DNA of 63,119 bases, counting the filler, from Neolecta irregularis DAH-3 (taxonomy: Eukaryota), in assembly GCA_001929475.1 (NCBI GenBank). It is 7 parts of 7 records of this genome, joined end to end, with 100 filler letters (N's around TTAATTAATTAA, not from the genome) between each part and the next. Parts side by side here need not be neighbours in the genome. Positions count along the whole stretch, not along the records: positions 17,293 to 38,137 come from LXFE01001159.1; 6 more parts are not named here. One strand, written 5' to 3'. The notes below the pieces were generated by a model. The model saw nothing but the letters and a program-made list of their open reading frames with translations, did no database searches and was not told the origin of the DNA. This document shows positions 4,177-55,656 of this stretch, in pieces. The position numbers were made by a program, and so were the translations under genes. The first letter of the stretch is position 1. Each line of letters opens with the position of its first letter.

Positions 4177-4471
4177 ACGGATCGGTCGGTAAGTCACATG
4201 TAATCTCCTTCTCTTAGTAAATGATAATGCAATATCAATGTCATGAAAGCTATGCCTGCCGTCCTACTAAAAGAATTGCCTATTCGGTTGGCCTGACTAA
4301 TACGAATTCGAAAACATCCTACCTACTGCGTTAGTGATACCAGTTTCGAAAAATCCTCACAATTTCAACACTACATATTTTCATTCTTGAGATACCGGAT
4401 AGACGCGTTCATATCTCCGGAAAAGCACTGCATCCCGTTCGATCTGCAAAGTTAAGCCCGGAAGAGCCTGG

Positions 4472-4678
4472 TCAGTATTGCGGTGGGTGACCACGCGAGA
4501 ATCCCGGGTAATGCATCTCTAATTCTCTTTTGTTCCACCCTCTTTTAAAATTCTTGGAAAGTAAACGAAACGGTATTGTACTACGATATTTTTGGTCGCC
4601 ATGATGGGAAATTGAATTTCTACTTTCGATAAATGACGTCAATTCTATTGACGGCACTGATATCTTGGGGCTCGCCAT
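4472..4678 (-). CDS. possible small hypothetical gene (first exon only)
   Basis: ATG-started 68-aa ORF between KGD1 and APN2; no recognisable motif. Confidence 0.2.
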   Translation of the reverse strand: MASPKISVPSIELTSFIESRNSISHHGDQKYRSTIPFRLLSKNFKRGWNKRELEMHYPGFSRGHPPQY

Positions 4679-11626: not shown

Positions 11627-11726
11627 NNNNNNNNNNNNNNNNNNNNNNNNNNNNNNNNNNNNNNNNNNNNTTAATTAATTAANNNNNNNNNNNNNNNNNN
11701 NNNNNNNNNNNNNNNNNNNNNNNNNN
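11627..11726. other. artificial assembly spacer (44N-TTAATTAATTAA-44N)
   Basis: Identical 100-nt spacer with a six-frame stop linker, seen six times in the window. Confidence 0.98.
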
Positions 11727-15146: not shown

Positions 15147-16163
15147 GTGCTGGTGATGTACGCGATTACTGAACAGAAAGTGGGAGATATGGCCGTTTTT
15201 ATAGACACAATGTCTCGGATTTGAGACGGATCCTGGGAAATTTTACCTCTCAAGCCACTGATCTAGATGCGTAGGTGGAACATATCATCTGACCTTTAGA
15301 AACATCTACGCAACCGGTTTGTAATGTAGCGATCTAAAAAATGAATAATTGCAAAGTCTTCATTGAAAATCCGAGACCTATTTCTCTTGATGTAGATGGG
15401 CCGTGGGCCTAAGAGTCAGATGAAGAGATGAGGAACAAGATGAGAGTGGTCAGGGTAATTGTAACGTGATATCATAACAAATTCAACATTCTTGAATACC
15501 ACATTCGTTATAAGCAGGTTCGATTGTAGTTGAAAAAGGAAAATGTCGTCCGTCACCATTGATTCAGATTGAATCTGAGATGAAATCTGAGTCACATTTC
15601 CGGCATCATTCTCAATATGTTTCAATTACATGAGTTGGTTCCGAAAATAGATCTTGGCACGGGCAACCTGGCAAAATTGTGTTTCCAGTTGGAACAAGAT
15701 TTGAATAGTATATAAAACCGAAACTAAGACCTTTTTTCGTGTGGATCAATATTCATAGTAATAGTTAAATTATGGTTTCAGTAGGTGAAAGATATGAAAC
15801 CGTATATAAACCTGAAAAGCAGGATATTTCGGCTCTTTCTCAGTGTAGATAAATATTAAGACAAGATGATAGCATTGTAACAGCTAAATCCGTACAACAT
15901 TTGAAACAGTATATAAAAACTGTAAAAGACGAGATATTCCTGGCCATTCTTGGGGTGGATAAAAGCATTTTGTATGCAGGCTTTGAGACAGTGGGGTTCC
16001 AATTTATGAGTACAATGGCTTTGAATCGTCACAGGGTAAAGTTTCACCTGGTATGTTCGAATCCATGACATCACGCGGGCAACTAGAGCAGGAGGAGACT
16101 GAGGCTGATGCTGAGTCATTGAACCAAATTCTCTGTATCTGGATTTAGTGTCGGTCAGCAAAA

Positions 16164-16262
16164 CCACGGCGACTCCAACTCCGACCACGGCGACTCCAAC
16201 TCCGACCACGGCGACTCCAACTCCGACCACGGCGACTTCAACTCCGACGATTGCAACTCCGA
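16164..16262 (+). repeat. minisatellite, 4+ copies of 21-bp CCACGGCGACTCCAACTCCGA
   Basis: Read directly from the sequence. Confidence 0.95.
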
Positions 16263-16316
16263 CAGCCGATTGCAACTCCAAAAACATCGCCGACCACGAC
16301 CCGCGATTCCAAATCA

Positions 16317-16778
16317 ATGCCCGCCATCCCCCACTGGAACGCCTTCTTTGCCCTGCGAGCGGCGCGCTCGCTGTATTCGCGGGCGGCGGTGCTGCCGAGC
16401 GCGGTGGGCGGCTTCTGCGCGGGCGTGCACTACTTTGCGTCGCACGACATCGACCCGTCGCAGCCGGTGTGGGGCATCGACCCGTTCATGGTCTACGGCG
16501 CGGCGACGTTTGCGTGTGCGGCGGGCGCGGGGCTGCTGGGCGCTCCTGTCGGCGCGGGGCTGTGGGCGCTTGTGCACCGGCGCTGCCTGCCCGAGTTCTC
16601 CGCCCGCGAGGCGCTGTTCCTGCGCCGCATCCGCGCCCGCCGCGTCGACCCGCGCTTCCAGAGCTACGCAAACCCGGTGCCCGACTACTACGGCGAGAAG
16701 ATCACCAGCGTCGCCGCCTACAGAAAGTGGCTGCGCGACCAGCGAAAGTACAACCGCAAGCGAGAAAAGTTTTTGTAG
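16317..16778 (+). CDS. PAM17: presequence translocase-associated motor subunit Pam17
   Basis: WNAFFALR start, GIDPFMVYG, two TM segments and the signature RVDP.FQSYANPVPDYYGEKI.S...YRKWLRD; intronless and very GC-rich. Confidence 0.92.
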   Translation: MPAIPHWNAFFALRAARSLYSRAAVLPSAVGGFCAGVHYFASHDIDPSQPVWGIDPFMVYGAATFACAAGAGLLGAPVGAGLWALVHRRCLPEFSAREALFLRRIRARRVDPRFQSYANPVPDYYGEKITSVAAYRKWLRDQRKYNRKREKFL

Positions 16779-16907
16779 TCTTCCTGTGTACACTATCTGT
16801 CTGATCTGACCTGACCTCTTCTGATCCTGGTCTCTGTCTGATCCTGGTCTCTTCTGATCTCTGCCCTGACCTCTGCCCATTCCTTCCGGGTCCCTCCCTG
16901 ATCCGCC

Positions 16908-17192
16908 ATTAAACAAACGCATTCGTCGACGACGACCTGCAAATTAACGCGCCCCAGAACATAGTCACCTCGCCAGCGGGCTGCTCAGGTTGCGCCCGTC
17001 GCTGCCGACCTCCACCTGCCGGTCGCTGCTGCCCTCCCCAGCAACAACCACCTCCGCCGCCCGCCCCGCCGCGCCGCACACACCGCTGGCGCGCATCGCC
17101 TCCGTCACCGTCCCGCTGCGGACCGACTGCACGCTGGGCGAGCTCGACAGCGGCCGCTCCTCCGCCTTGCGCGGCAGCGGCAGCGTGCTCAC
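16908..17192 (-). CDS. 3' end of an unknown GC-rich gene, truncated by the gap
   Basis: Open frame from the gap, a putative GTGACT...TTGCAG intron, then SSSTNAFV*. Confidence 0.4.
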
Positions 17193-17292
17193 NNNNNNNN
17201 NNNNNNNNNNNNNNNNNNNNNNNNNNNNNNNNNNNNTTAATTAATTAANNNNNNNNNNNNNNNNNNNNNNNNNNNNNNNNNNNNNNNNNNNN
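17193..17292. other. artificial assembly spacer
   Basis: N44-TTAATTAATTAA-N44. Confidence 0.98.
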
Positions 17293-18829: not shown

Positions 18830-20582
18830 ATGGACGAGCACCGCCAACAAGACCAGCCTACTCTCATGCCAAATGTAAGACAGCATCCTGGGGACGAAGT
18901 ATATTCCCTTCAGCTAGCCTCTTCGGCCTCGTCCCTCCCTGAGACGAAAATTGAAGAGGGGGTTGACCTGGAGCGACAAGAATCGAATGAGTTGGAATTG
19001 ATAAAAACATACGATGGCGTATCAAACGATCTTCGAAAAGACGAAGGACTACGAAGAGTTTGCAGTCACGGCAACGTAGTTGGATGGGAATCTGAAGATG
19101 ACCCTGCAAACCCACGTAACTGGATTCGTTGGAGAAAAAGTGTTGCACTTGGCATCGTCTCGATGGGCTCCACATTCTCGTGCGTTGCCTGTTGTATGAC
19201 TGCCTGATGTTAATTACTGGATTAGACCACTAGCTTCGTCCATGTTTGCACCCGGTGTTAGCACTCTATTGATGGATTTTCATACGTCCAGTACGGTACT
19301 ACCTACGCTTGTTGTTTCCGTTTTCGTGCTTGGATATGCAGCTGGTCCATTGTACATGGCTTCTGCATAATTTTGTCTGACTGTCAGAATCTTGGGCCCA
19401 CTCTCAGAGATTTACGGGCGCGCACCTGTGACGAATGCTGCCAGCGTTCTCTTCTTTGTTTTCACAATCCTTTGCGCAAAGTCGACAAGTTTAAACATGC
19501 TAATCGGGATGCGATTCCTTGCTGGATTGGTTGGGTCATCACCTCTTACCATTGGTGGGGGTATCATTTCTGACCTATTCGCACCCGAGGAACGTGGTAC
19601 AGCCGTTGCCATCTTTTCCTTTGGCCCTCTCGTTGGTCCAGTCATTGGACCAATCGCTGGTGGATTTATTGCTGAAACGATTGGATGGAGATGGGTTTTT
19701 TGGATCCTTGCGATTGCGGGGGGGATTACTGCAATTGGAGGCTTGCTGTTCCTTCAAGAAACGAACGCAATGGTTCTCCTTGAACGAAAAGCTGAGAAGT
19801 TACGCAAGTCTACCGGAAATATGGAACTACACGCCTCTATGAACCGGGAAGTCAGCCCTGGAACGCTTTTGCTACATGGAATCGCTCGGCCATTCAAAGT
19901 ATGTATTATTTATATGAATCCTTATTAATCCAAATAGTTGCTCACTCAGAGCATTATCGTCCTCTGTCTTTCGCTCTATATTGCTCTGATATATGGATAT
20001 CTATACATCCTGTTTACGACCTTCACCGAAGTGTTCGAAAGTACTTACGCCTTCAACAACGGAACAGCAGGCCTGTCTTACCTTGGAATCGGTATCGGAT
20101 TTCTAATTGGTTTATTCATCGTCGGAAACACATCAGATCGTATATTCATATACCTTTCTAAGAAAAATGGTCGTCAATTACCCGAATATCGATTTCCAAT
20201 CATGATTGTGGGTGCTATTTTCGTTCCAGTCGGCCTTTTCTGGTATGGATGGTCTGTTGAAAGACATGATCATTGGATTGTTCCAATTATCGGTACAACC
20301 CCTTTTGGGATAGGGATGATTTCGGCCTTCTTTCCGGTTCAAGTCTACCTCATCGATGCATTCTCATACTACGCGGCGAGTGCCCTTGCCGCTACAACTC
20401 TTCTGCGGAGCTTAGCCGGCGCTTTCTTGCCTCTTGCAGGGCCTAAGATGTATGCAAAGCTGGGGTTCGGATGGGGCAACTCGCTGCTAGGAATTATTGC
20501 TTTAGCTATGCTACCAATGCCCGTTGTCTTTTTTAAATACGGCGAGAAGATTCGTTTGCGTTATCCAGTCAAGTTGGGATGA
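18830..20582 (+). CDS. MFS drug:H+ antiporter, DHA1 family (Tpo/Flr-like)
   Basis: [54 protein letters not shown] and YAASALAA motifs; 3 introns. Confidence 0.95.
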
Positions 20583-21084
20583 AGGAATAATTATTGCTAC
20601 TATTCTCATTTCTCTATAAAGCTATAGCGGAGGGTAGAATCACTGGGTTTTTATATTGCATATAAAATTGCATTTAGTTGTAATGCTGTTGATTAATTGA
20701 AAATATTTTAACCCTGTAGAGGTCCTCAGGCATTGTGTTCATGCCTCGTCGTTAATCATAATTTCATTAGGATACATAGCAGAGAGATGACCTCAAAGAT
20801 ATGCACTAATGGGGTGATAATGGTACTTGAGAAAGAGCAGATAGCGTATTTAGTAAGGTCATCAAATACAAATATTTTTGGATACGATTTAGGTGATAAG
20901 CTAGACACCGTAAACAAGAAGGCAGTAAATAATGACGAATGGCAAAATCTTGTAGAATTTGACAGCTTGTATACCGTGATGCGTAGGCTTATAAAATGAG
21001 GCATGTCCATTCATGATGAGAAGAAAGTGCAACATTTGGCGTGAGATATCAAGATCATCAGGATGGCATGGGTAATATCAGGGG

Positions 21085-21650
21085 TTATCTCCTCCCTCAC
21101 CCTCTATCCCCTAACACTATCCCTATGTACACCAGCAGTTATCCCCCCGCCCCTTCAGAACTCCAATCACTATCCTATATTGTCACAGCATTTACCTCAA
21201 CTATGTTGCGCGGAATTTTTAGACGTCGCAGCACGCGGTCAGCCAAAACCAACGACGTGTTTCTACGTTTAACTTTGAAGAACTAGGTCATTGGATCGGT
21301 CTCGCTCGCCATAGGTCTCTCGTATAGGGGGATTGCGGCCGGTTGTCTCACTGGGTCTAGTTTAGAGAAGTTTCATATCTTTTATTTTTGTTTACTTTAT
21401 CATTTTTGTTTTTCCGAGCCACTTGGCATAGCGTGTGTTCTGCGGATAGGATAAAAGGGCTGCGAAGGTTTCTTTTTCGATAGACGAAGATACTGTCTGA
21501 ATAGCGAGTCAAGTCTTTTCTTGGATAACTTGATTCCTCGCTATAAGACCCCGCCCTCGCACAGCAAAGCTTCAAACCCCATTTCCACCAAGAATCTACC
21601 ACTCGTCAAAGCAGTCAAAACTCACCGTGAACACTGATTGGAACCTGTGC
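21085..21650 (+). repeat. diverged ~530-bp direct repeat, copy B (downstream of MFS, upstream of SRA-bromo gene)
   Basis: Same colinear blocks as copy A at 17890-18415. Confidence 0.9.
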
Positions 21651-22032
21651 TAACAGACTCAATCAAAAAATGTTTGAAATACAGAGATTAAAAAAATACG
21701 TTCTTCTCAATACAATTCGTTTTAAAGTATATTGAATACAGCTGCGAATGAATTACGGATGTGGCATTCATATAATAATAATTTGGGGGATCGACAAAGT
21801 GGTTTGTGCTTTTGAAACCCAAACATCCTGGACTATCTTATCAAATCTCGGCCTGCAATCACGTCCGCCTAATTATTCTTCACTCAAATTGTGTGGAATT
21901 TCCAAAATTATCGCCATCATCAGTGAACTCCTCCAAAAGTCAAGATCACATTCCCCTTATTAAGCTGTTCTCAGACTCAAACAAACCAAAGAGAACTGAT
22001 TCACAATTGAGTTCTCAGCACCCACGAAGACG

Positions 22033-23764
22033 ATGTTCCCAGATTATTACTCTTCTTCAAATTTAAATAGCACTGATCTTTTCCTTTTTGGTCTAAACGA
22101 GGAAATTGGTTCTAATGCTTTGAATTTGACCGACTTGTCGCACTTCTCTGCTTGCGATCCACCAAAGGTACCCCTCAAGACGCCTAAAGCCAAGAAGCGA
22201 AAGTCGAGTGAATCAAATCTTATCTTCCAAACAGAAGAGCGCATTGCTCCTGGGATTATTAGACGAAGAGTCAATGGACGGCTCTCGATGTCATTCGATG
22301 ATCATATAAAAGAGAAGAAGAAGCGGATGGGAAAATCCAAGGTCTTCGGCCCGATTGAAGGATTCCCAGTGGTAAAGTCTATGTCTACAATCGCTGAAAT
22401 ATAGGGATATTGGTGGGCGTTCCGTATGGAGTGCCATCGCGACGGCATTCATGAAGCTCCAGTTGCGGGTATAGTTGGAACCCCTCAGACTGGATGCCCG
22501 TCAATTGCCATCAGTGGGGGTTACGAAGATGATGTCGACAATGGTTCCAATGTTTCTACATTCAATGGCTTATACTTAGGATACGAATTCATTTATACGG
22601 GCGCAGGTGGCAGGGACTTGAAAGGTACAGAAGAAACACGAAAAAACCTTCGCACCGCCCCTCAGTCAAAGGACCAAGAGGCTTCATCTACCAACATGGC
22701 TTTGATGAAATCTTGTGACGAAAAGTTACCGGTACGTGTTGTAAGAGGTTTCAAGGGCCGTAAACCTTGGGCACCACCGGTTGGATTTCGGTATCACAGG
22801 CAACTCTAATTTGGCTGATGTCAGATATGATGGGCTTTACCGGGTAGTAAAATATTATCAAGTAGTTGGCATTTCTGGCTTCAAGGTTATTGTTGTCACT
22901 CTCATTAAAGCTTATCTAAAGGTCTGGCGATTCGATTTTGCAAGGCTACCTAATCAACCACCTATCGACATCGAAGGAGTTTATGCGAAAGAACACCATC
23001 AATATGAGCTCGCTGGAGTTGTAATTGACGAGCAAACCGGAAAACTCCATAAGAAGGCGTCTACCCACATCAGGTCTAAAAAGGGATGCGATTCTATAAA
23101 AAACCCTGCAACACTAAAAGAAAAACCTCCAGTGATCTCTGTCAAGAGTGAGTATAGAAATGGTGTAGAAGGGAACAATTTATTGGATATAAAGCACGAG
23201 GATGAATCTTCCAAACCACGGAATTCTCGTGCTGTCGGAAAACTCTGTAAAACCAACAGAGTGAAGTCAGTACTTTCAGAAATCAATGTTCAGCAGCAGA
23301 TATTCGAGCCAATTGAATATATTGTGATGGGCGATGCTAGAGCTGAATGCAAAGAGAGAAAAATTAAACGAGAAACTGGAAGTTCAAATACGGAAAACTC
23401 GTGGGAAACGAGCTGTCAACGAATTCTTGATACTTTATTCTGCCGGACCTACGCCAATATTGCCATTTCGTTCCTTGAGCCTGTTGGTAAAGCCTTCATT
23501 CGTCCAAGTATTAACCCTGTAGATCGTGATGAATACCCAGACTATTATGAGGAAATCCAGAAACCCATAGACCTTGGGTTGGTACAAAATAGACTCGCAA
23601 GCAGGGTCTACAACTGCCCACAGGAATTCTACGACGACCTCGCCTTGATGTTCGCGAACTGTCACTACTATAATATGGAGGGCTCTGATATTGTCCAGGA
23701 TGCAACCAGGCTTGAGGGTGTGTTTAAGCGCCGGTGGGCAAAGGTGTTTGGAACAATGGAGTAG
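22033..23764 (+). CDS. SRA/YDG (UHRF1-type) domain plus C-terminal bromodomain protein
   Basis: SRA motifs FGPIEGFPVG, GIHEAPVAGI, SIAISGGYEDD, FIYTGAGGRDL, PVRVVRG and FRYDGLY. Bromodomain FLEPV-DRDEYPDYYEEIQKPIDL...YNCPQEFYDDLALMFANCHYYN. Five short introns. Confidence 0.88.
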
Positions 23765-23864
23765 AACGGAACTTTGCATATGGTGATAGCCAATTAATTG
23801 CGCAGGTGTAGTGGCCTAATATTTCTGCTGCACTTCTCCGCTTTTAATTCTCTCCTCCAATAAA

Positions 23865-24680
23865 ATGGCAGTCGCCAAATCCTTTCCGCCAGAAAAATGT
23901 CTGGTCAAAGTCTCTCAACCAAATGCTACTCTTCCTGTATACCAGATCACTTTTGCCGCTCCGCCAGATAACCGCTTGAACACGTCTTTTTGCAATGCAC
24001 TCTTCTCTGCGCTCGATTATGTTGCAACATTGCCTCCGGGAGCTGTTATCACAACCTCTGAACAAGCAAAGTTTTACAGCAATGGCCTCGATCTACAACA
24101 CGTGCATGAAACACCAGGATTCTTGCAAGGTACTCTGTACAACCTCTTTATTCGACTCTTAACCTTTCCAATGCCAACTGTCGCGGCTGTTACCGGCCAT
24201 GCGTTTGCGGGTGGTTGGATGCTTGCCATGTGTCATGATTATCGAGTTGGGAACGAGAAGAAGGGGTGGTTCTCTCTCAACGAACTTGAATTCGGAGGCA
24301 TGTCTGTTGTTCGATGAGAAGCTAATTTTATAGCATACTTGCCTTATGCAATGGTTCAACTTATGGCAAGGAAGTTGGAGCTGGCCACGTTCTCGAAGGC
24401 GGCCTTGGAAGCTTATCGATTTACTGGTCCAGACGGCATTGAACGGGGTTTTCTGGATCAGCTAGGGAAGGATCCGGAAGAAGTGTTAAAAATTGCTCTG
24501 TCGATTGGCAAGGACAAAGCCAAATTTGGCCAAAGTGCAGGTTATGGGAAGATGAAGCGAGAGGTCTGGAGAAATATAGTTCAATGTCTGAAAGAAGACG
24601 GCATTGAACGGGAAAAGATTCTGTCTAAAGAAATGGAGGCAGAAGAGAAGCGGATGGAGAGCATCCAATCCAAGTTGTAA
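23865..24680 (+). CDS. peroxisomal enoyl-CoA delta-isomerase (crotonase family)
   Basis: PPDNRL, KFYSNGLDL, FPMPTVAAVTGHAFAGG and NELEFG motifs; C-terminal SKL (PTS1); 1 intron. Confidence 0.9.
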
Positions 24681-36840: not shown

Positions 36841-38137
36841 ATGCTCGCTACTGCAGCAAGTTCACCCGTGTCAATTCGTTCCGGAGAAACACTGGAAAAT
36901 AATTCTCTATATTATTCAACGGGTACCGACTCGTCTCGGTCTCTAACCAACCTCTATGTCCCTCAAGGTTTTCCGAATCCACAGGCCCCGCCTCAGCACC
37001 GCGCGCCGTTATTTTCCGAGATCAGTTCAGAGCCATCTCATCTCCGTCCAGGCAACAAGGTCCTTCTTCAGGACCATTCAACGACGCTAAATCTGTACCG
37101 CCTAAACGCCAAGAAATCATCAGATCCAACTGTTCAATTCGACTTTGCCAATTTTATAATTGAGACGGTACCGAGTGACGAGTCGCTGCTCAAGGAAGCC
37201 ATTGCGATTTTGAGAAAGTTGGCGGATAAAGGGTATCCCGACGCCCAGTACTTTCTCGCAGATTGTTATTCTCAGGGAACTGGAGTCAAGGGGGGAGAGC
37301 GTGATATGGACAAGGCGTTTCCATTGTTCCATATGGCCGCAAAACACGGACATACAGAAGCTGCTTGGAGGACGGCCGAATGCTACGAACATGGACTTGG
37401 GACGAAACCGGATGCAGCCAAGGCGGTGCAGTTTCTCCGGTATGGAATGAATTAACATCGAGGTTAACTCAATAGAAAAGCGGCGAGTTCGTCGCATCCA
37501 GGCGCTATGCTTCGATTGGCCAAGGCTAATTTGGAGCCGTCTTTGGGACTCCCGCTTTCCCCGCGGGAAGGGATCAAGTGGCTGAAACGGGCTGTTGAAC
37601 ATTCGACGACCAAGTTCAACTGCGCGCCCTTTGAGTTGGCGCAACTGCATGAAAGCGGGTATAAAGACGTCATCTTTCAGGATTTCCCGTATGTCGTGCA
37701 GCTGCTGTGCATGGGCTCTGATCTGGGACACGCCGAGTGCTCCACCAAGCTGGGCGAGGCGTACGAGTACGGCAACATTGGCTGTCCCGTCGATGCCGGG
37801 CTGAGCATCCACTACTACACGCTTGCAGCGATGGCTGGACATGCAGGCGCAATGTACTCGCTTTGTGCGTGGTACATGTGCGGTGCACCTGCTATTCTGG
37901 CCAAGAACGAGGCCGAGGCATATGAGTGGGCCAAGAAGGCCGCAGAGGCGGGTCTGGCCAAGGCCGAGTATGCCGTTGGCTTCTTTCTCGAGAGCGGCAT
38001 TGGCTGCGTGCGGGATGCCCTGGAGGCGAATCTGTGGTATGTGCGTGCGGCAGAACATGGTGAAGAACGCGCCCGCAATCGCCTGGCAGACAATAATTCA
38101 GCAGCGGCGGCGGAAGCGGCAGCAGCAGCAGCATCAC
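36841..38137 (+). CDS. SKT5: chitin synthase activator with Sel1-like repeats (Skt5/Chs4), 3'-truncated by the gap
   Basis: LYRLNAKKSSDP, AQYFLADCY, AAKHGH, REGIKWLKRA, SIHYYTLAA, LCAWY and AKAEYAVG motifs. Confidence 0.92.
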
Positions 38138-38237
38138 NNNNNNNNNNNNNNNNNNNNNNNNNNNNNNNNNNNNNNNNNNNNTTAATTAATTAANNNNNNN
38201 NNNNNNNNNNNNNNNNNNNNNNNNNNNNNNNNNNNNN
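38138..38237. other. artificial assembly spacer
   Basis: N44-TTAATTAATTAA-N44. Confidence 0.98.
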
Positions 38238-45287: not shown

Positions 45288-45387
45288 NNNNNNNNNNNNN
45301 NNNNNNNNNNNNNNNNNNNNNNNNNNNNNNNTTAATTAATTAANNNNNNNNNNNNNNNNNNNNNNNNNNNNNNNNNNNNNNNNNNNN
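45288..45387. other. artificial assembly spacer
   Basis: N44-TTAATTAATTAA-N44. Confidence 0.98.
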
Positions 45388-45563: not shown

Positions 45564-47073
45564 ATGGCCGGTTCCATATCATCCGAAAACGTATCGCCAC
45601 CAATAACATTTTACGCAGCTGCCCATGCTCTCATGCGACCACGTCCTTCTCGCACAGCCACATCGCCAAAGAGTTCCGCCTCAATTACTTCAGTGAATGC
45701 ATTTGCCAAGCCAGAGATCTCCATTCGTACTACTACCCCAAAGTCAAATCATGCCCAAGACCCAGTTGAGCTGTCATCAAAAGAGTCGCAGCGACCACTA
45801 CCTGCATCTCCCCCACCCCCTCGCATGTCCGTGTTCGTTCCCTCCCAGTTTCAAATAGACTATGACGAACAACTACGCATCCTCGATTTAGGCAAGCGTC
45901 TTTTCTCTCTCTCTAATCCTAGACGCTATTACTGCTCTCCACCGACAAGGCAGGCCCGTGTTTGACAGACCCCATCAATATAAACTGTACAATGCATGCT
46001 TCCTACCTGCCGCTGGCTCGGCACACATGCGTTCGGTCGATAGACTCTCGCTCATCATTTGGCTCGAGGGTCTCGTTGCTACTCTTGCGGAGTCGCATCA
46101 TGCAAGTCTCGGCAACTGCATTGATGTCTCTTGTCGATTACTCGACTATGCATTCAACGATTTAAACAGCACGCCAGGGCAATTTATAACCCTTGAACCT
46201 AGTAGCACATTCCTCAGGACAATCGAACTCGTTCAAACTGTTTATTTGTCGTTTTTAGGGTTCGTTGGAGTTGTTGGGGATTCTTCTGAAAAGACCTTTC
46301 TCCAACTATTTCAAGATCAAGTGCAAATTGGAATCCATGATGCACTGCAACAGCCCGTCGCGACTACCCAGTCCACAGACTCGATCGTTCGTCTTTATGA
46401 ATCTCTACGAAAGTCGTTTCCCCTCTCTGTGCTCGATAAACAATCGAATGCCCCCAATTCAAGTCAACCTTTACTTTTACATCCAGAGAATATCGGGTTA
46501 TCAGAATCTAAAATTCGAAATATGGATATCCTTGGTTGGCATCAAGATGGATTCGTCGTTATTACACCGACTAATCTCTGGACCCAACATTTAGAGACAA
46601 CCGTCGCCAACGGTATGTTGACGATTTACATTTACAATACCCTCAGCCCCGTCTTTCGTCTATTCAATTATCACAGAATATCATCTTTAAAAGCACTTGA
46701 AAATTCTACACAAGTAACTCATCTCTGTTCAATAGGTCAATCACTCGATACAACCACTAGATTACTGTTCCATACTACTAGTTCTCGCAAATGGGCTGCA
46801 GACCACGGTATCGCGACGGTTGAACTCACCGTCAATGTACAAGACGCATCTCTCCGCCCTATTGAAAATACCCCTCCGGCAAACTTAATTTATCGCAGGC
46901 TTCAGATTTTGCAGTATGTCCTTGGACACCCGGTCATGTGTATCGTTCGAGATATTTATGTACGTAGCCACGCTGCTCCTCTTTCGTCGTATACAACTAT
47001 CATCTTGGGATTATTTGGTCTAGTAGTACTCATTGCTCGTTCAGTCCTTCAGGGGTATGTATCCATTGTTTAG
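45564..47073 (+). CDS. hypothetical protein with Ser/Pro-rich N-terminus and C-terminal TM (tail-anchor-like)
   Basis: Two long ORFs joined in frame by a 31-nt GC-AG intron (45892-45922); terminal hydrophobic stretch TTIILGLFGLVVLIA. Confidence 0.7.
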
Positions 47074-52905: not shown

Positions 52906-53005
52906 NNNNNNNNNNNNNNNNNNNNNNNNNNNNNNNNNNNNNNNNNNNNTTAATTAATTAANNNNNNNNNNNNNNNNNNNNNNNNNNNNNNNNNNNNNNN
53001 NNNNN
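52906..53005. other. artificial assembly spacer
   Basis: N44-TTAATTAATTAA-N44. Confidence 0.98.
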
Positions 53006-55556: not shown

Positions 55557-55656
55557 NNNNNNNNNNNNNNNNNNNNNNNNNNNNNNNNNNNNNNNNNNNN
55601 TTAATTAATTAANNNNNNNNNNNNNNNNNNNNNNNNNNNNNNNNNNNNNNNNNNNN
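55557..55656. other. artificial assembly spacer
   Basis: N44-TTAATTAATTAA-N44. Confidence 0.98.

Follow-up and report, generated by a model that had tools for sequence, protein, structure and literature searches.

What would a fungus use a protein for that is predicted to read methylated DNA and, in the same chain, acetylated histones? The question is raised by a gene at positions 22033-23764 (plus strand) of a 63,119-nucleotide window, this being the whole stretch of DNA that was analysed, made up of seven parts of the genome of Neolecta irregularis DAH-3 (GenBank assembly GCA_001929475.1) joined end to end. The gene runs from an ATG start codon at 22033 to a TAG stop codon at 23762-23764, as established by reading and from stop-to-stop frames, and it encodes an SRA domain followed by a bromodomain. 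The deposited protein (P0001, 542 residues) agrees with the translated 3' part of the gene with 100% identity over 100% coverage; it carries the precomputed Pfam families PF00439 and PF02182, and was deposited under the name 'E3 ubiquitin-protein ligase UHRF1'. From its sequence, the protein is most likely a reader of hemimethylated CpG of the Uhrf1-like kind, with an acquired reader of acetyl-lysine.

An earlier note on this DNA had placed a full SRA domain at about 22330-22950, with the motifs GGYEDD, YTGxGGRDL and RYDGLY, and Pfam bears this out. SAD_SRA (PF02182) matches residues 105-274 of P0001 (nucleotides ~22345-22957) with 148.2 bits against a cut-off of 30.7 (E 1.9e-43) and over profile positions 2-148 of 148, and the motifs are located at residues 151 (GGYEDD), 165 (YTGAGGRDL) and 230 (RYDGLY). 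The note also called the protein UHRF1-type, which holds for the SRA domain but not for the protein as a whole, this belonging with a stand-alone SRA family and not with the RING/PHD/Tudor ligases. In a phmmer comparison the SRA domain of mouse UHRF1 is matched with E 4.6e-34, as against 5.8e-19 or weaker for the SRA domains of plant SUVH proteins. The AlphaFold2 model, built on an alignment of 97 sequences, has block means of the predicted local distance difference test (pLDDT) of 92-98 for residues 101-250, except for 82-84 at 171-190 and 241-250. When this model is compared with known structures by Foldseek, the top matches are UHRF1 SRA structures, with template modelling (TM) scores of 0.71-0.75 normalised on the target, the first in the Protein Data Bank being 2zkd, which is mouse UHRF1 SRA with hemimethylated CpG (E 3.3e-19, TM 0.71 on the target, 38% identity).

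The positions that contact the ligand in this family can be compared across 94 aligned sequences, the query included. Those aligned with the pocket, finger and thumb are kept in nearly all of them: Y153 in 93, D156 in 92, T166 in 90 and V133 in 87, together with N182 (90) and R184 (92) at the positions aligned with the finger. Y165 is Tyr in 69 sequences and Phe in the remaining 25. Each of the seven is the majority residue at its position. We take their counterparts in human UHRF1 to be Y466, D469, Y478 and T479 of the pocket, N489 and R491 of the Asn/Arg finger, and the thumb Val, V446. Judged by such alignments, the SRA domain is UHRF1-type, with the positions predicted to contact the ligand conserved.

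The bromodomain, which had been read at about 23400-23750 as intact and as carrying the Asn of CHYYN, is likewise borne out by Pfam. PF00439 matches residues 428-524 (nucleotides ~23417-23707) with 71.3 bits against a cut-off of 21.7 (E 6.9e-20), covering profile positions 2-83 of 84. In alignment with polybromo-1 bromodomains, the YPDYY motif (residue 467) and the Asn of CHYYN (motif at 509, Asn513) fall on their counterparts. We take this Asn and the Tyr of PDYY to be the residues that anchor acetyl-lysine, equivalent to N140 and Y97 of BRD4. By our own count there are 43 residues from the first Tyr of PDYY to the Asn, which is presumably the spacing in BRD4. Helices are modelled at residues 423-454, 468-474, 480-490, 496-512 and 519-538, with a block-mean pLDDT of only 35-67; just 10 bromodomain proteins were present in the alignment, which would account for the poor model of this part.

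Against the HMMER matches described below, the best single-domain scores of this bromodomain are 58-64 bits, and identity to other bromodomains is about 30-41%. A word-indexed search of 5.8 billion proteins with the bromodomain region found no close relative other than P0001 itself among proteins of 298-949 residues, and a similar search with the C-terminal 312 residues, against proteins of 171-546 residues, returned P0001 alone. The nearest named bromodomains are in multi-bromodomain proteins of Chloropicon, Dispira, chytrids and a mite, and because these are unrelated eukaryotes the donor gene cannot be named.

The combination of SRA and bromodomain appears to be undescribed and confined to the Neolecta lineage, as far as the sequences compared here indicate. 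A HMMER scan of 1.84 billion cluster representatives gave 9027 proteins at E <=0.001, and the best 150 of these (score floor about 134 bits) were examined. Of these, 93 match the SRA part only, in one stretch each (two in the case of P0146), and 56 are multi-bromodomain proteins, matching through the bromodomain only in 4-9 stretches; none besides the query matches through both domains, although a fusion whose SRA scores below about 134 bits would escape. When Pfam was run on P0001 and the 93 SRA relatives, SAD_SRA was found in 94/94 and the bromodomain in 1/94, this one being the query. With the SRA region as query, a word-indexed search yielded 909 proteins at E <=1e-10, and among the 120 matches listed PF00439 occurs in P0001 only. 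Structure matches in the ESM Atlas are to SRA families only, paired with RING/PHD/Tudor, HNH or caspase domains, and a search of the Atlas by features gave no usable match. In open-access full text, judged partly by titles and abstracts, no published protein with both domains was found; in the full texts read, the two terms stand in unconnected passages, for instance on BAH domains or among the abbreviations of a figure. The pairing, which was unfamiliar when first noticed, is thus absent both from the other proteins examined and from the open-access literature searched.

Proteins with SRA alone are the nearest relatives, with about 50-59% identity to the Neolecta protein over this domain. They are found in the Pezizomycetes Rhizina, Morchella and Tuber, in rusts including Puccinia, in Microbotryum and in mushrooms, and also in Glomeromycota (Geosiphon), chytrids (Spizellomyces), spiders, echinoderms and molluscs. 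The closest among the matches listed is a metagenomic protein, P0004, with 59% identity. Using P0004, 20 metagenome loci were fetched, 48-65% identical to the Neolecta protein (tblastn) and 73-100% identical to P0004. In 14 of the 20 the sequence goes on for 0.9 kb or more past the SRA match on its downstream side. All frames of the 20 loci were searched with a profile made from 279 bromodomains, which detected none at E <=10; as a positive control, the same profile finds the bromodomain in the Neolecta window with E 1.7e-37.

No other domain accompanies the two. Pfam finds only SAD_SRA and the bromodomain in P0001 at E <=0.001, with no RING, PHD, Tudor or UBL, and the seven open reading frames (ORFs) in the 1.45 kb upstream match no Pfam family at E <=0.1. 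Because the protein has none of these four domains, the name 'E3 ubiquitin-protein ligase UHRF1' is misleading. It is worth adding that 26 of the 94 aligned sequences share a motif, Y[ED]..R..N[IVLM]..N...[LMIV]..LG, which in 23 cases lies within the first 27 residues, and that residues 4-21 of P0001 match it only loosely. In fungal proteins of the Uhrf1-like family the motif might serve as a peptide that binds a partner. Further on, KAKKRK (residues 52-57) resembles a nuclear localisation signal on our own reading of the sequence.

Whether the two domains are in fact made as one protein depends on the structure of the gene, of which the parts are as follows.

22033..22371, plus strand: exon 1, with the start codon, the diverged N-terminal motif, KAKKRK (residues 52-57) and the start of the SRA domain (..FGPIEGFPV); its joins reproduce P0001.
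22372..22404, plus strand: intron 1, 33 nucleotides, GTAAAG..TAG, with an in-frame TAG stop inside; spliced out in P0001.
22405..22543, plus strand: exon 2, the SRA core with the GGYEDDVDNG pocket motif, in which GGYEDD is at nucleotides 22516-22533.
22544..22579, plus strand: intron 2, 36 nucleotides, GTTCCA..TAG; spliced out in P0001.
22580..22790, plus strand: exon 3, with YTGAGGRDL, the KNLRTAPQS finger and PVRVVRGFK.
22791..22824, plus strand: intron 3, 34 nucleotides, GTATCA..CAG, at which the frame shifts from 1 to 2; spliced out in P0001, the join giving APPVGFRYDGLYRV.
22825..22885, plus strand: exon 4, encoding RYDGLYRVVKYYQVVGISGFK.
22886..22921, plus strand: intron 4, 36 nucleotides, in frame, GTTATT..AAG; kept in P0001 as 12 extra residues (252-263).
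22922..23486, plus strand: exon 5, unbroken, with the last SRA strands (VWRFDFARL), then the linker, then helix 1 of the bromodomain up to FLEPV.
23487..23522, plus strand: candidate intron 5, 36 nucleotides, in frame, GTAAAG..TAG; P0001 retains it as GKAFIRPSINPV (residues 451-462).
23523..23764, plus strand: exon 6, the rest of the bromodomain (YPDYY, and CHYYN with Asn513 in P0001 numbering) and the TAG stop at 23762-23764.

The open frame from 22745 to 23764 has 339 codons and crosses the end of the SRA domain, the linker and the bromodomain. In 200 shuffles of the window the longest stop-free run was 236 codons, and the probability that 339 given codons stay open at the composition of the window is about 3e-9. 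The linker between the domains is about 145 residues long, rich in Lys, Glu and Ser, and disordered, with a pLDDT below 50 in the AlphaFold2 model. The gene lies inside a gap-free contig of 20,845 bases (17293-38137), the nearest runs of N being at 17193-17292 and 38138-38237, and introns of the same unusual size (33-36 nucleotides) occur in both the SRA and the bromodomain halves. The claim that this is one continuous gene therefore holds at the level of the DNA, with a single exon across the junction and no N in the gene; we infer a real, single nuclear gene and, from the DNA, a single mRNA. The alternative is that the fusion is not used as such, the locus giving two products, or carrying a recent and decaying addition of a bromodomain, or being an error of assembly. 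This view gains something from the fact that the fusion has been seen in one genome only and that the deposited gene model already holds at least one splicing error. It is nevertheless very unlikely, given the single exon and long open frame over the junction, the unbroken contig and the shared intron size, and given that the bromodomain fits its Pfam profile over the full length, with the key residues retained.

Removing the first three introns, all of the GT..AG type, reproduces every residue of P0001. Removal of intron 1 restores FGPIEGFPVGYWWAFR, which aligns without gaps to the SRA domain of mouse UHRF1, and the join at intron 2 gives DVDNGYEFIYTGAGGRDL, collinear with UHRF1. The deposited model keeps one in-frame intron of 36 nucleotides, intron 4, and probably a second, candidate intron 5. 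For intron 4, none of the 93 relatives (0/93) has any residue in the 12 columns concerned, and the BLASTP alignment of P0001 with P0020 has a 12-residue gap precisely at these residues. The pLDDT falls to 67 in the block that holds most of them (251-260), as against 84 and 97 in the adjoining blocks. In several of the metagenome loci (L004, L006, L011 and L017) the tblastn match stops at query residue 251-253, which is the position of intron 4, and this suggests that the position of the intron is common to Neolecta and its metagenome relatives.

Candidate intron 5 has the same GTAAAG start as intron 1, and its site is in the loop after the first bromodomain helix. Its removal gives FLEPVDRDEYPDYY. 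Compared with 259 bromodomains of the matches, the spliced form scores better in 224 and the unspliced form in 32, with a mean gain of 2.4 bits on splicing, and the alignments of the spliced form extend further into the first helix. Without splicing, the Pfam match takes 98 residues for 83 profile positions. On the other side, polybromo-1 bromodomains have a longer loop here, to which the unspliced form can be aligned. We judge it quite likely that 23487-23522 is a real intron; with all five introns removed, 518 residues remain.

All the introns here are very short and much alike in length, at 33, 36, 34 and 36 nucleotides, plus the 36-nucleotide candidate. Because they are so short, introns that are in frame and free of stops are readily read through, and because P0001 keeps at least one such intron other Neolecta gene models may share the fault. 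When GTA[AT]G..NAG pairs were counted by length across the window there was no peak, so that this count is uninformative. The paper on the Neolecta genome (PMC5309816) nowhere uses the words intron, RNA-seq, methyl or transcriptome in its main text, and the accessible part of a second paper (PMC8476143) gives no intron lengths for Neolecta.

As to function, we lean towards placing the protein in the stand-alone SRA (Uhrf1-like, YDG) family, with a bromodomain gained in the Neolecta lineage and a likely part as helper of a maintenance methyltransferase. The bromodomain would bind acetyl-lysine, most likely on a histone tail. Two readers joined by a flexible linker of this length could then grip, bivalently, those nucleosomes that have both methylated DNA and acetylated histones. 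The job of the protein would be to help a maintenance DNA methyltransferase, probably of Dnmt5 type, to act on methylated DNA.

There are several points that weigh against this reading. In the SRA domain, Ala168 stands where UHRF1 has Ser481; the column has Ser in 52, Glu in 22 and Ala in 9 of the 94 sequences, the residues found in the relatives being Ser, Glu, Ala, Cys or Gln. The bromodomain part of the model is poor (block-mean pLDDT 35-67, as noted above), and the bromodomain of P0001 has ISF where we believe many bromodomains to have WPF. Selection on the fusion cannot be assessed, because it is known from one genome. The ratio of observed to expected CpG in the window is 0.94, so that this gene-rich stretch bears no sign of heavy CpG methylation. 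In fungi, 5-methylcytosine (5mC) is mostly restricted to repeats, and for this reason the ratio is weak evidence, neither for nor against methylation of that restricted kind. Lastly, a preprint on Pneumocystis centromeres stated in its first version that no Taphrinomycotina have DNA methylases (PMC10327204), and Neolecta is placed in this group, with Schizosaccharomyces and Pneumocystis (PMC10327204).

The last point has, however, been overtaken, since the accessible text of the 2024 version of this preprint reverses the statement (bioRxiv 10.1101/2023.05.12.540427). It reports proteins with the PF00145 methylase domain in N. irregularis and in Saitoella, with no class given for those of N. 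irregularis, and when the methylases of N. irregularis and S. complicata were used as BLAST queries they retrieved Pneumocystis helicases and SNF2 ATPases (bioRxiv 10.1101/2023.05.12.540427). The latter result hints at an enzyme of the Dnmt5 type (SNF2 plus methylase), because the queries retrieved SNF2 ATPases and helicases; this is our own suggestion and not that of the authors. Taphrina deformans is listed by Funabiki et al. with a UHRF1 homologue and DNMT4, Neolecta being unmentioned there. In the window itself, no DNMT was found among the 10 of 29 ORFs of at least 180 residues that were scanned with Pfam (three of which had no match).

A quite different reading is that the Neolecta SRA domain recognises some other modified or damaged base, or binds DNA without regard to methylation, in which case we would be dealing with a bromodomain chromatin factor of the ordinary kind to which a DNA-binding module is attached. 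5mC or canonical DNMTs are missing from most of the Taphrinomycotina that have been studied, according to PMC10327204 and the accessible part of PMC7862722; the latter also reports no detectable 5mC in S. pombe, which has only the Dnmt2 homologue Pmt1, in keeping with the remark in the earlier note that the model yeasts of this lineage lack 5mC. SRA specificity can vary, because the UHRF2 SRA domain has been crystallised with DNA containing 5-hydroxymethylcytosine (4pw5, 4pw6), and the CpG ratio in the window would also fit. The pocket, finger and thumb positions, however, all carry the usual residues of the family, PF00145 proteins are reported in N. irregularis, as the accessible preprint text has it (bioRxiv 10.1101/2023.05.12.540427), and the SRA domain is 50-59% identical to that of methylating fungi such as Tuber, which in the available text of PMC7862722 has both 5mC and DNMT genes. 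We consider it improbable that methylation goes unread.

It could also be that both readers work but have no part in maintenance, serving instead to mark a boundary, as the earlier note had also suggested, to recruit other factors to chromatin that is methylated but acetylated, or to curb the spread of 5mC or heterochromatin. Acetyl-lysine and 5mC normally mark opposite chromatin states, which would suit such a role, as would the absence of a RING or other effector domain from P0001 and the upstream ORFs (Pfam). Loss of Uhrf1 alone in Cryptococcus has almost no effect on 5mC, in the accessible part of the study (10.1101/149385), and because of this SRA-only proteins may have other main roles. 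Yet the same Cryptococcus protein, the closest characterised relative, works in maintenance: it is an SRA-only, selective binder of hemimethylated DNA that promotes Dnmt5-dependent 5mC in parallel to Clr4/H3K9 methylation (10.1101/149385, in the part accessible). Moreover, nothing singles out a boundary or recruitment role, and Pfam detects in P0001 neither a catalytic domain nor one known for recruitment. Such a role is therefore, to our minds, unlikely, and help to a maintenance methyltransferase is the function that we prefer.

Within a maintenance role, the two readers might act together in a more specific way. Behind the replication fork the DNA is hemimethylated, and new histones carry H4K5ac/K12ac and, in fungi, H3K56ac. 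The protein may be a coincidence detector for nascent chromatin, requiring both hemimethylated DNA and new histones with their deposition acetylation; it would then hand a Dnmt5-type enzyme its substrate on time, and replace the Tudor-PHD-RING ubiquitin relay of UHRF1 and DNMT1. We put this forward as a possibility, and a doubtful one. If it is true, it is a new, ligase-free coupling of methylation maintenance to replication.

New combinations of chromatin domains are common, and SRA and bromodomain are both well-known readers. To our knowledge this fungus has never been cultured. Neolecta nevertheless offers a natural experiment, in which an adaptor of the SRA kind also has a reader aimed at histones. 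Should the two domains bind what is predicted, the protein would connect 5mC with lysine acetylation, marks that are usually thought of as opposed, and the UHRF1 design of a methyl-DNA reader plus a histone reader would have been reinvented with a different histone module. How fungal Dnmt5-type enzymes locate hemimethylated CpG is called an open question in the accessible part of a 2026 review (PMC13297926), which says the same of whether similar adaptors work in other fungi. The misnaming of the deposited protein, which has no E3 ligase domain, and its mis-splicing matter for anyone who expresses P0001.

The surroundings of the gene may be described briefly. A downstream neighbour begins at 23866 (plus strand), about 100 nucleotides past the stop codon of the SRA-bromodomain gene, and by its motifs, on our own reading, looks like a crotonase or enoyl-CoA hydratase. 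At 24300-24335 its two main open frames, which are in the same frame, are split by a stop, and no frame-consistent GT..AG intron could be found there by eye. Rfam gives no match in 20400-24000. Other ORFs of the window encode a 2-oxoglutarate dehydrogenase, an AP endonuclease with a GRF finger, an ankyrin and oxysterol-binding protein, a chitin synthase and a Cas1p acyltransferase. A complete 5S rRNA gene is present at 4401-4519 (plus strand; Rfam RF00001, 97.7 bits, model positions 1-120 of 120), between protein-coding stretches; there is no other rRNA match in the window, and no tRNA gene was found in the whole of it.

Six pairs of 44-base runs of N, with 12 bases between the members of each pair, lie at 11627-11726, 17193-17292, 38138-38237, 45288-45387, 52906-53005 and 55557-55656. 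They look like contig joins or masked stretches, and none touches the SRA-bromodomain gene. At 15856-16943, at 36-38 kb and at 44-46 kb the G+C content rises to 0.51-0.55, from about 0.42 in the rest of the window, and each of these stretches adjoins a run of N. The first contains long open frames in several frames and on both strands; in the raised stretches, the ORFs at 37123-38097 (minus strand) and 45892-47070 (plus strand) have no Pfam match.

Among systems already described, Uhrf1 of Cryptococcus neoformans (CNAG_00677), a 'stripped-down' homologue of UHRF1, is like the Neolecta protein an SRA reader without Tudor and RING. The Cryptococcus protein differs in having no bromodomain, and the kinship of the two is inferred from their shared membership of the fungal SRA-only family. 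The stand-alone YDG/SRA proteins of fungi and invertebrates, with SRA domains about 50-59% identical, have the same motifs and, like the Neolecta protein, no RING or PHD. They too lack the bromodomain (0/93 of the nearest, 0/119 of the other best matches and 0/20 of the metagenome loci). In this family SRA is the sole domain, whereas the Neolecta protein has the bromodomain at 428-524 as well, though its SRA part groups there.

Animal UHRF1 and UHRF2 and plant VIM/ORTH proteins have an SRA domain of the same type, and the same design of a methyl-DNA reader joined to a histone reader. In ligases of the UHRF1 type, SRA is combined with a tandem Tudor and a PHD, which read H3K9me3 and the unmodified H3 tail, and with a RING (PMC13297926, in its accessible part). 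In Neolecta, by contrast with UHRF1 and VIM/ORTH, histones would be read by a bromodomain, and a ligase domain is absent. With the bromodomains of the polybromo-1 type and those of BET proteins, Bdf1, Rsc4 and Gcn5 this bromodomain shares YPDYY and the Asn of YN, although identity is only about 30-41%. A module resembling a methyl-DNA-binding one is also joined to a bromodomain in a single chain in what we take to be the architecture of BAZ2A and BAZ2B, namely an MBD-like TAM domain, a PHD and a bromodomain. These presumably differ from the Neolecta protein in having an MBD-like fold that does not flip out a base, and are unrelated to it outside the bromodomain.

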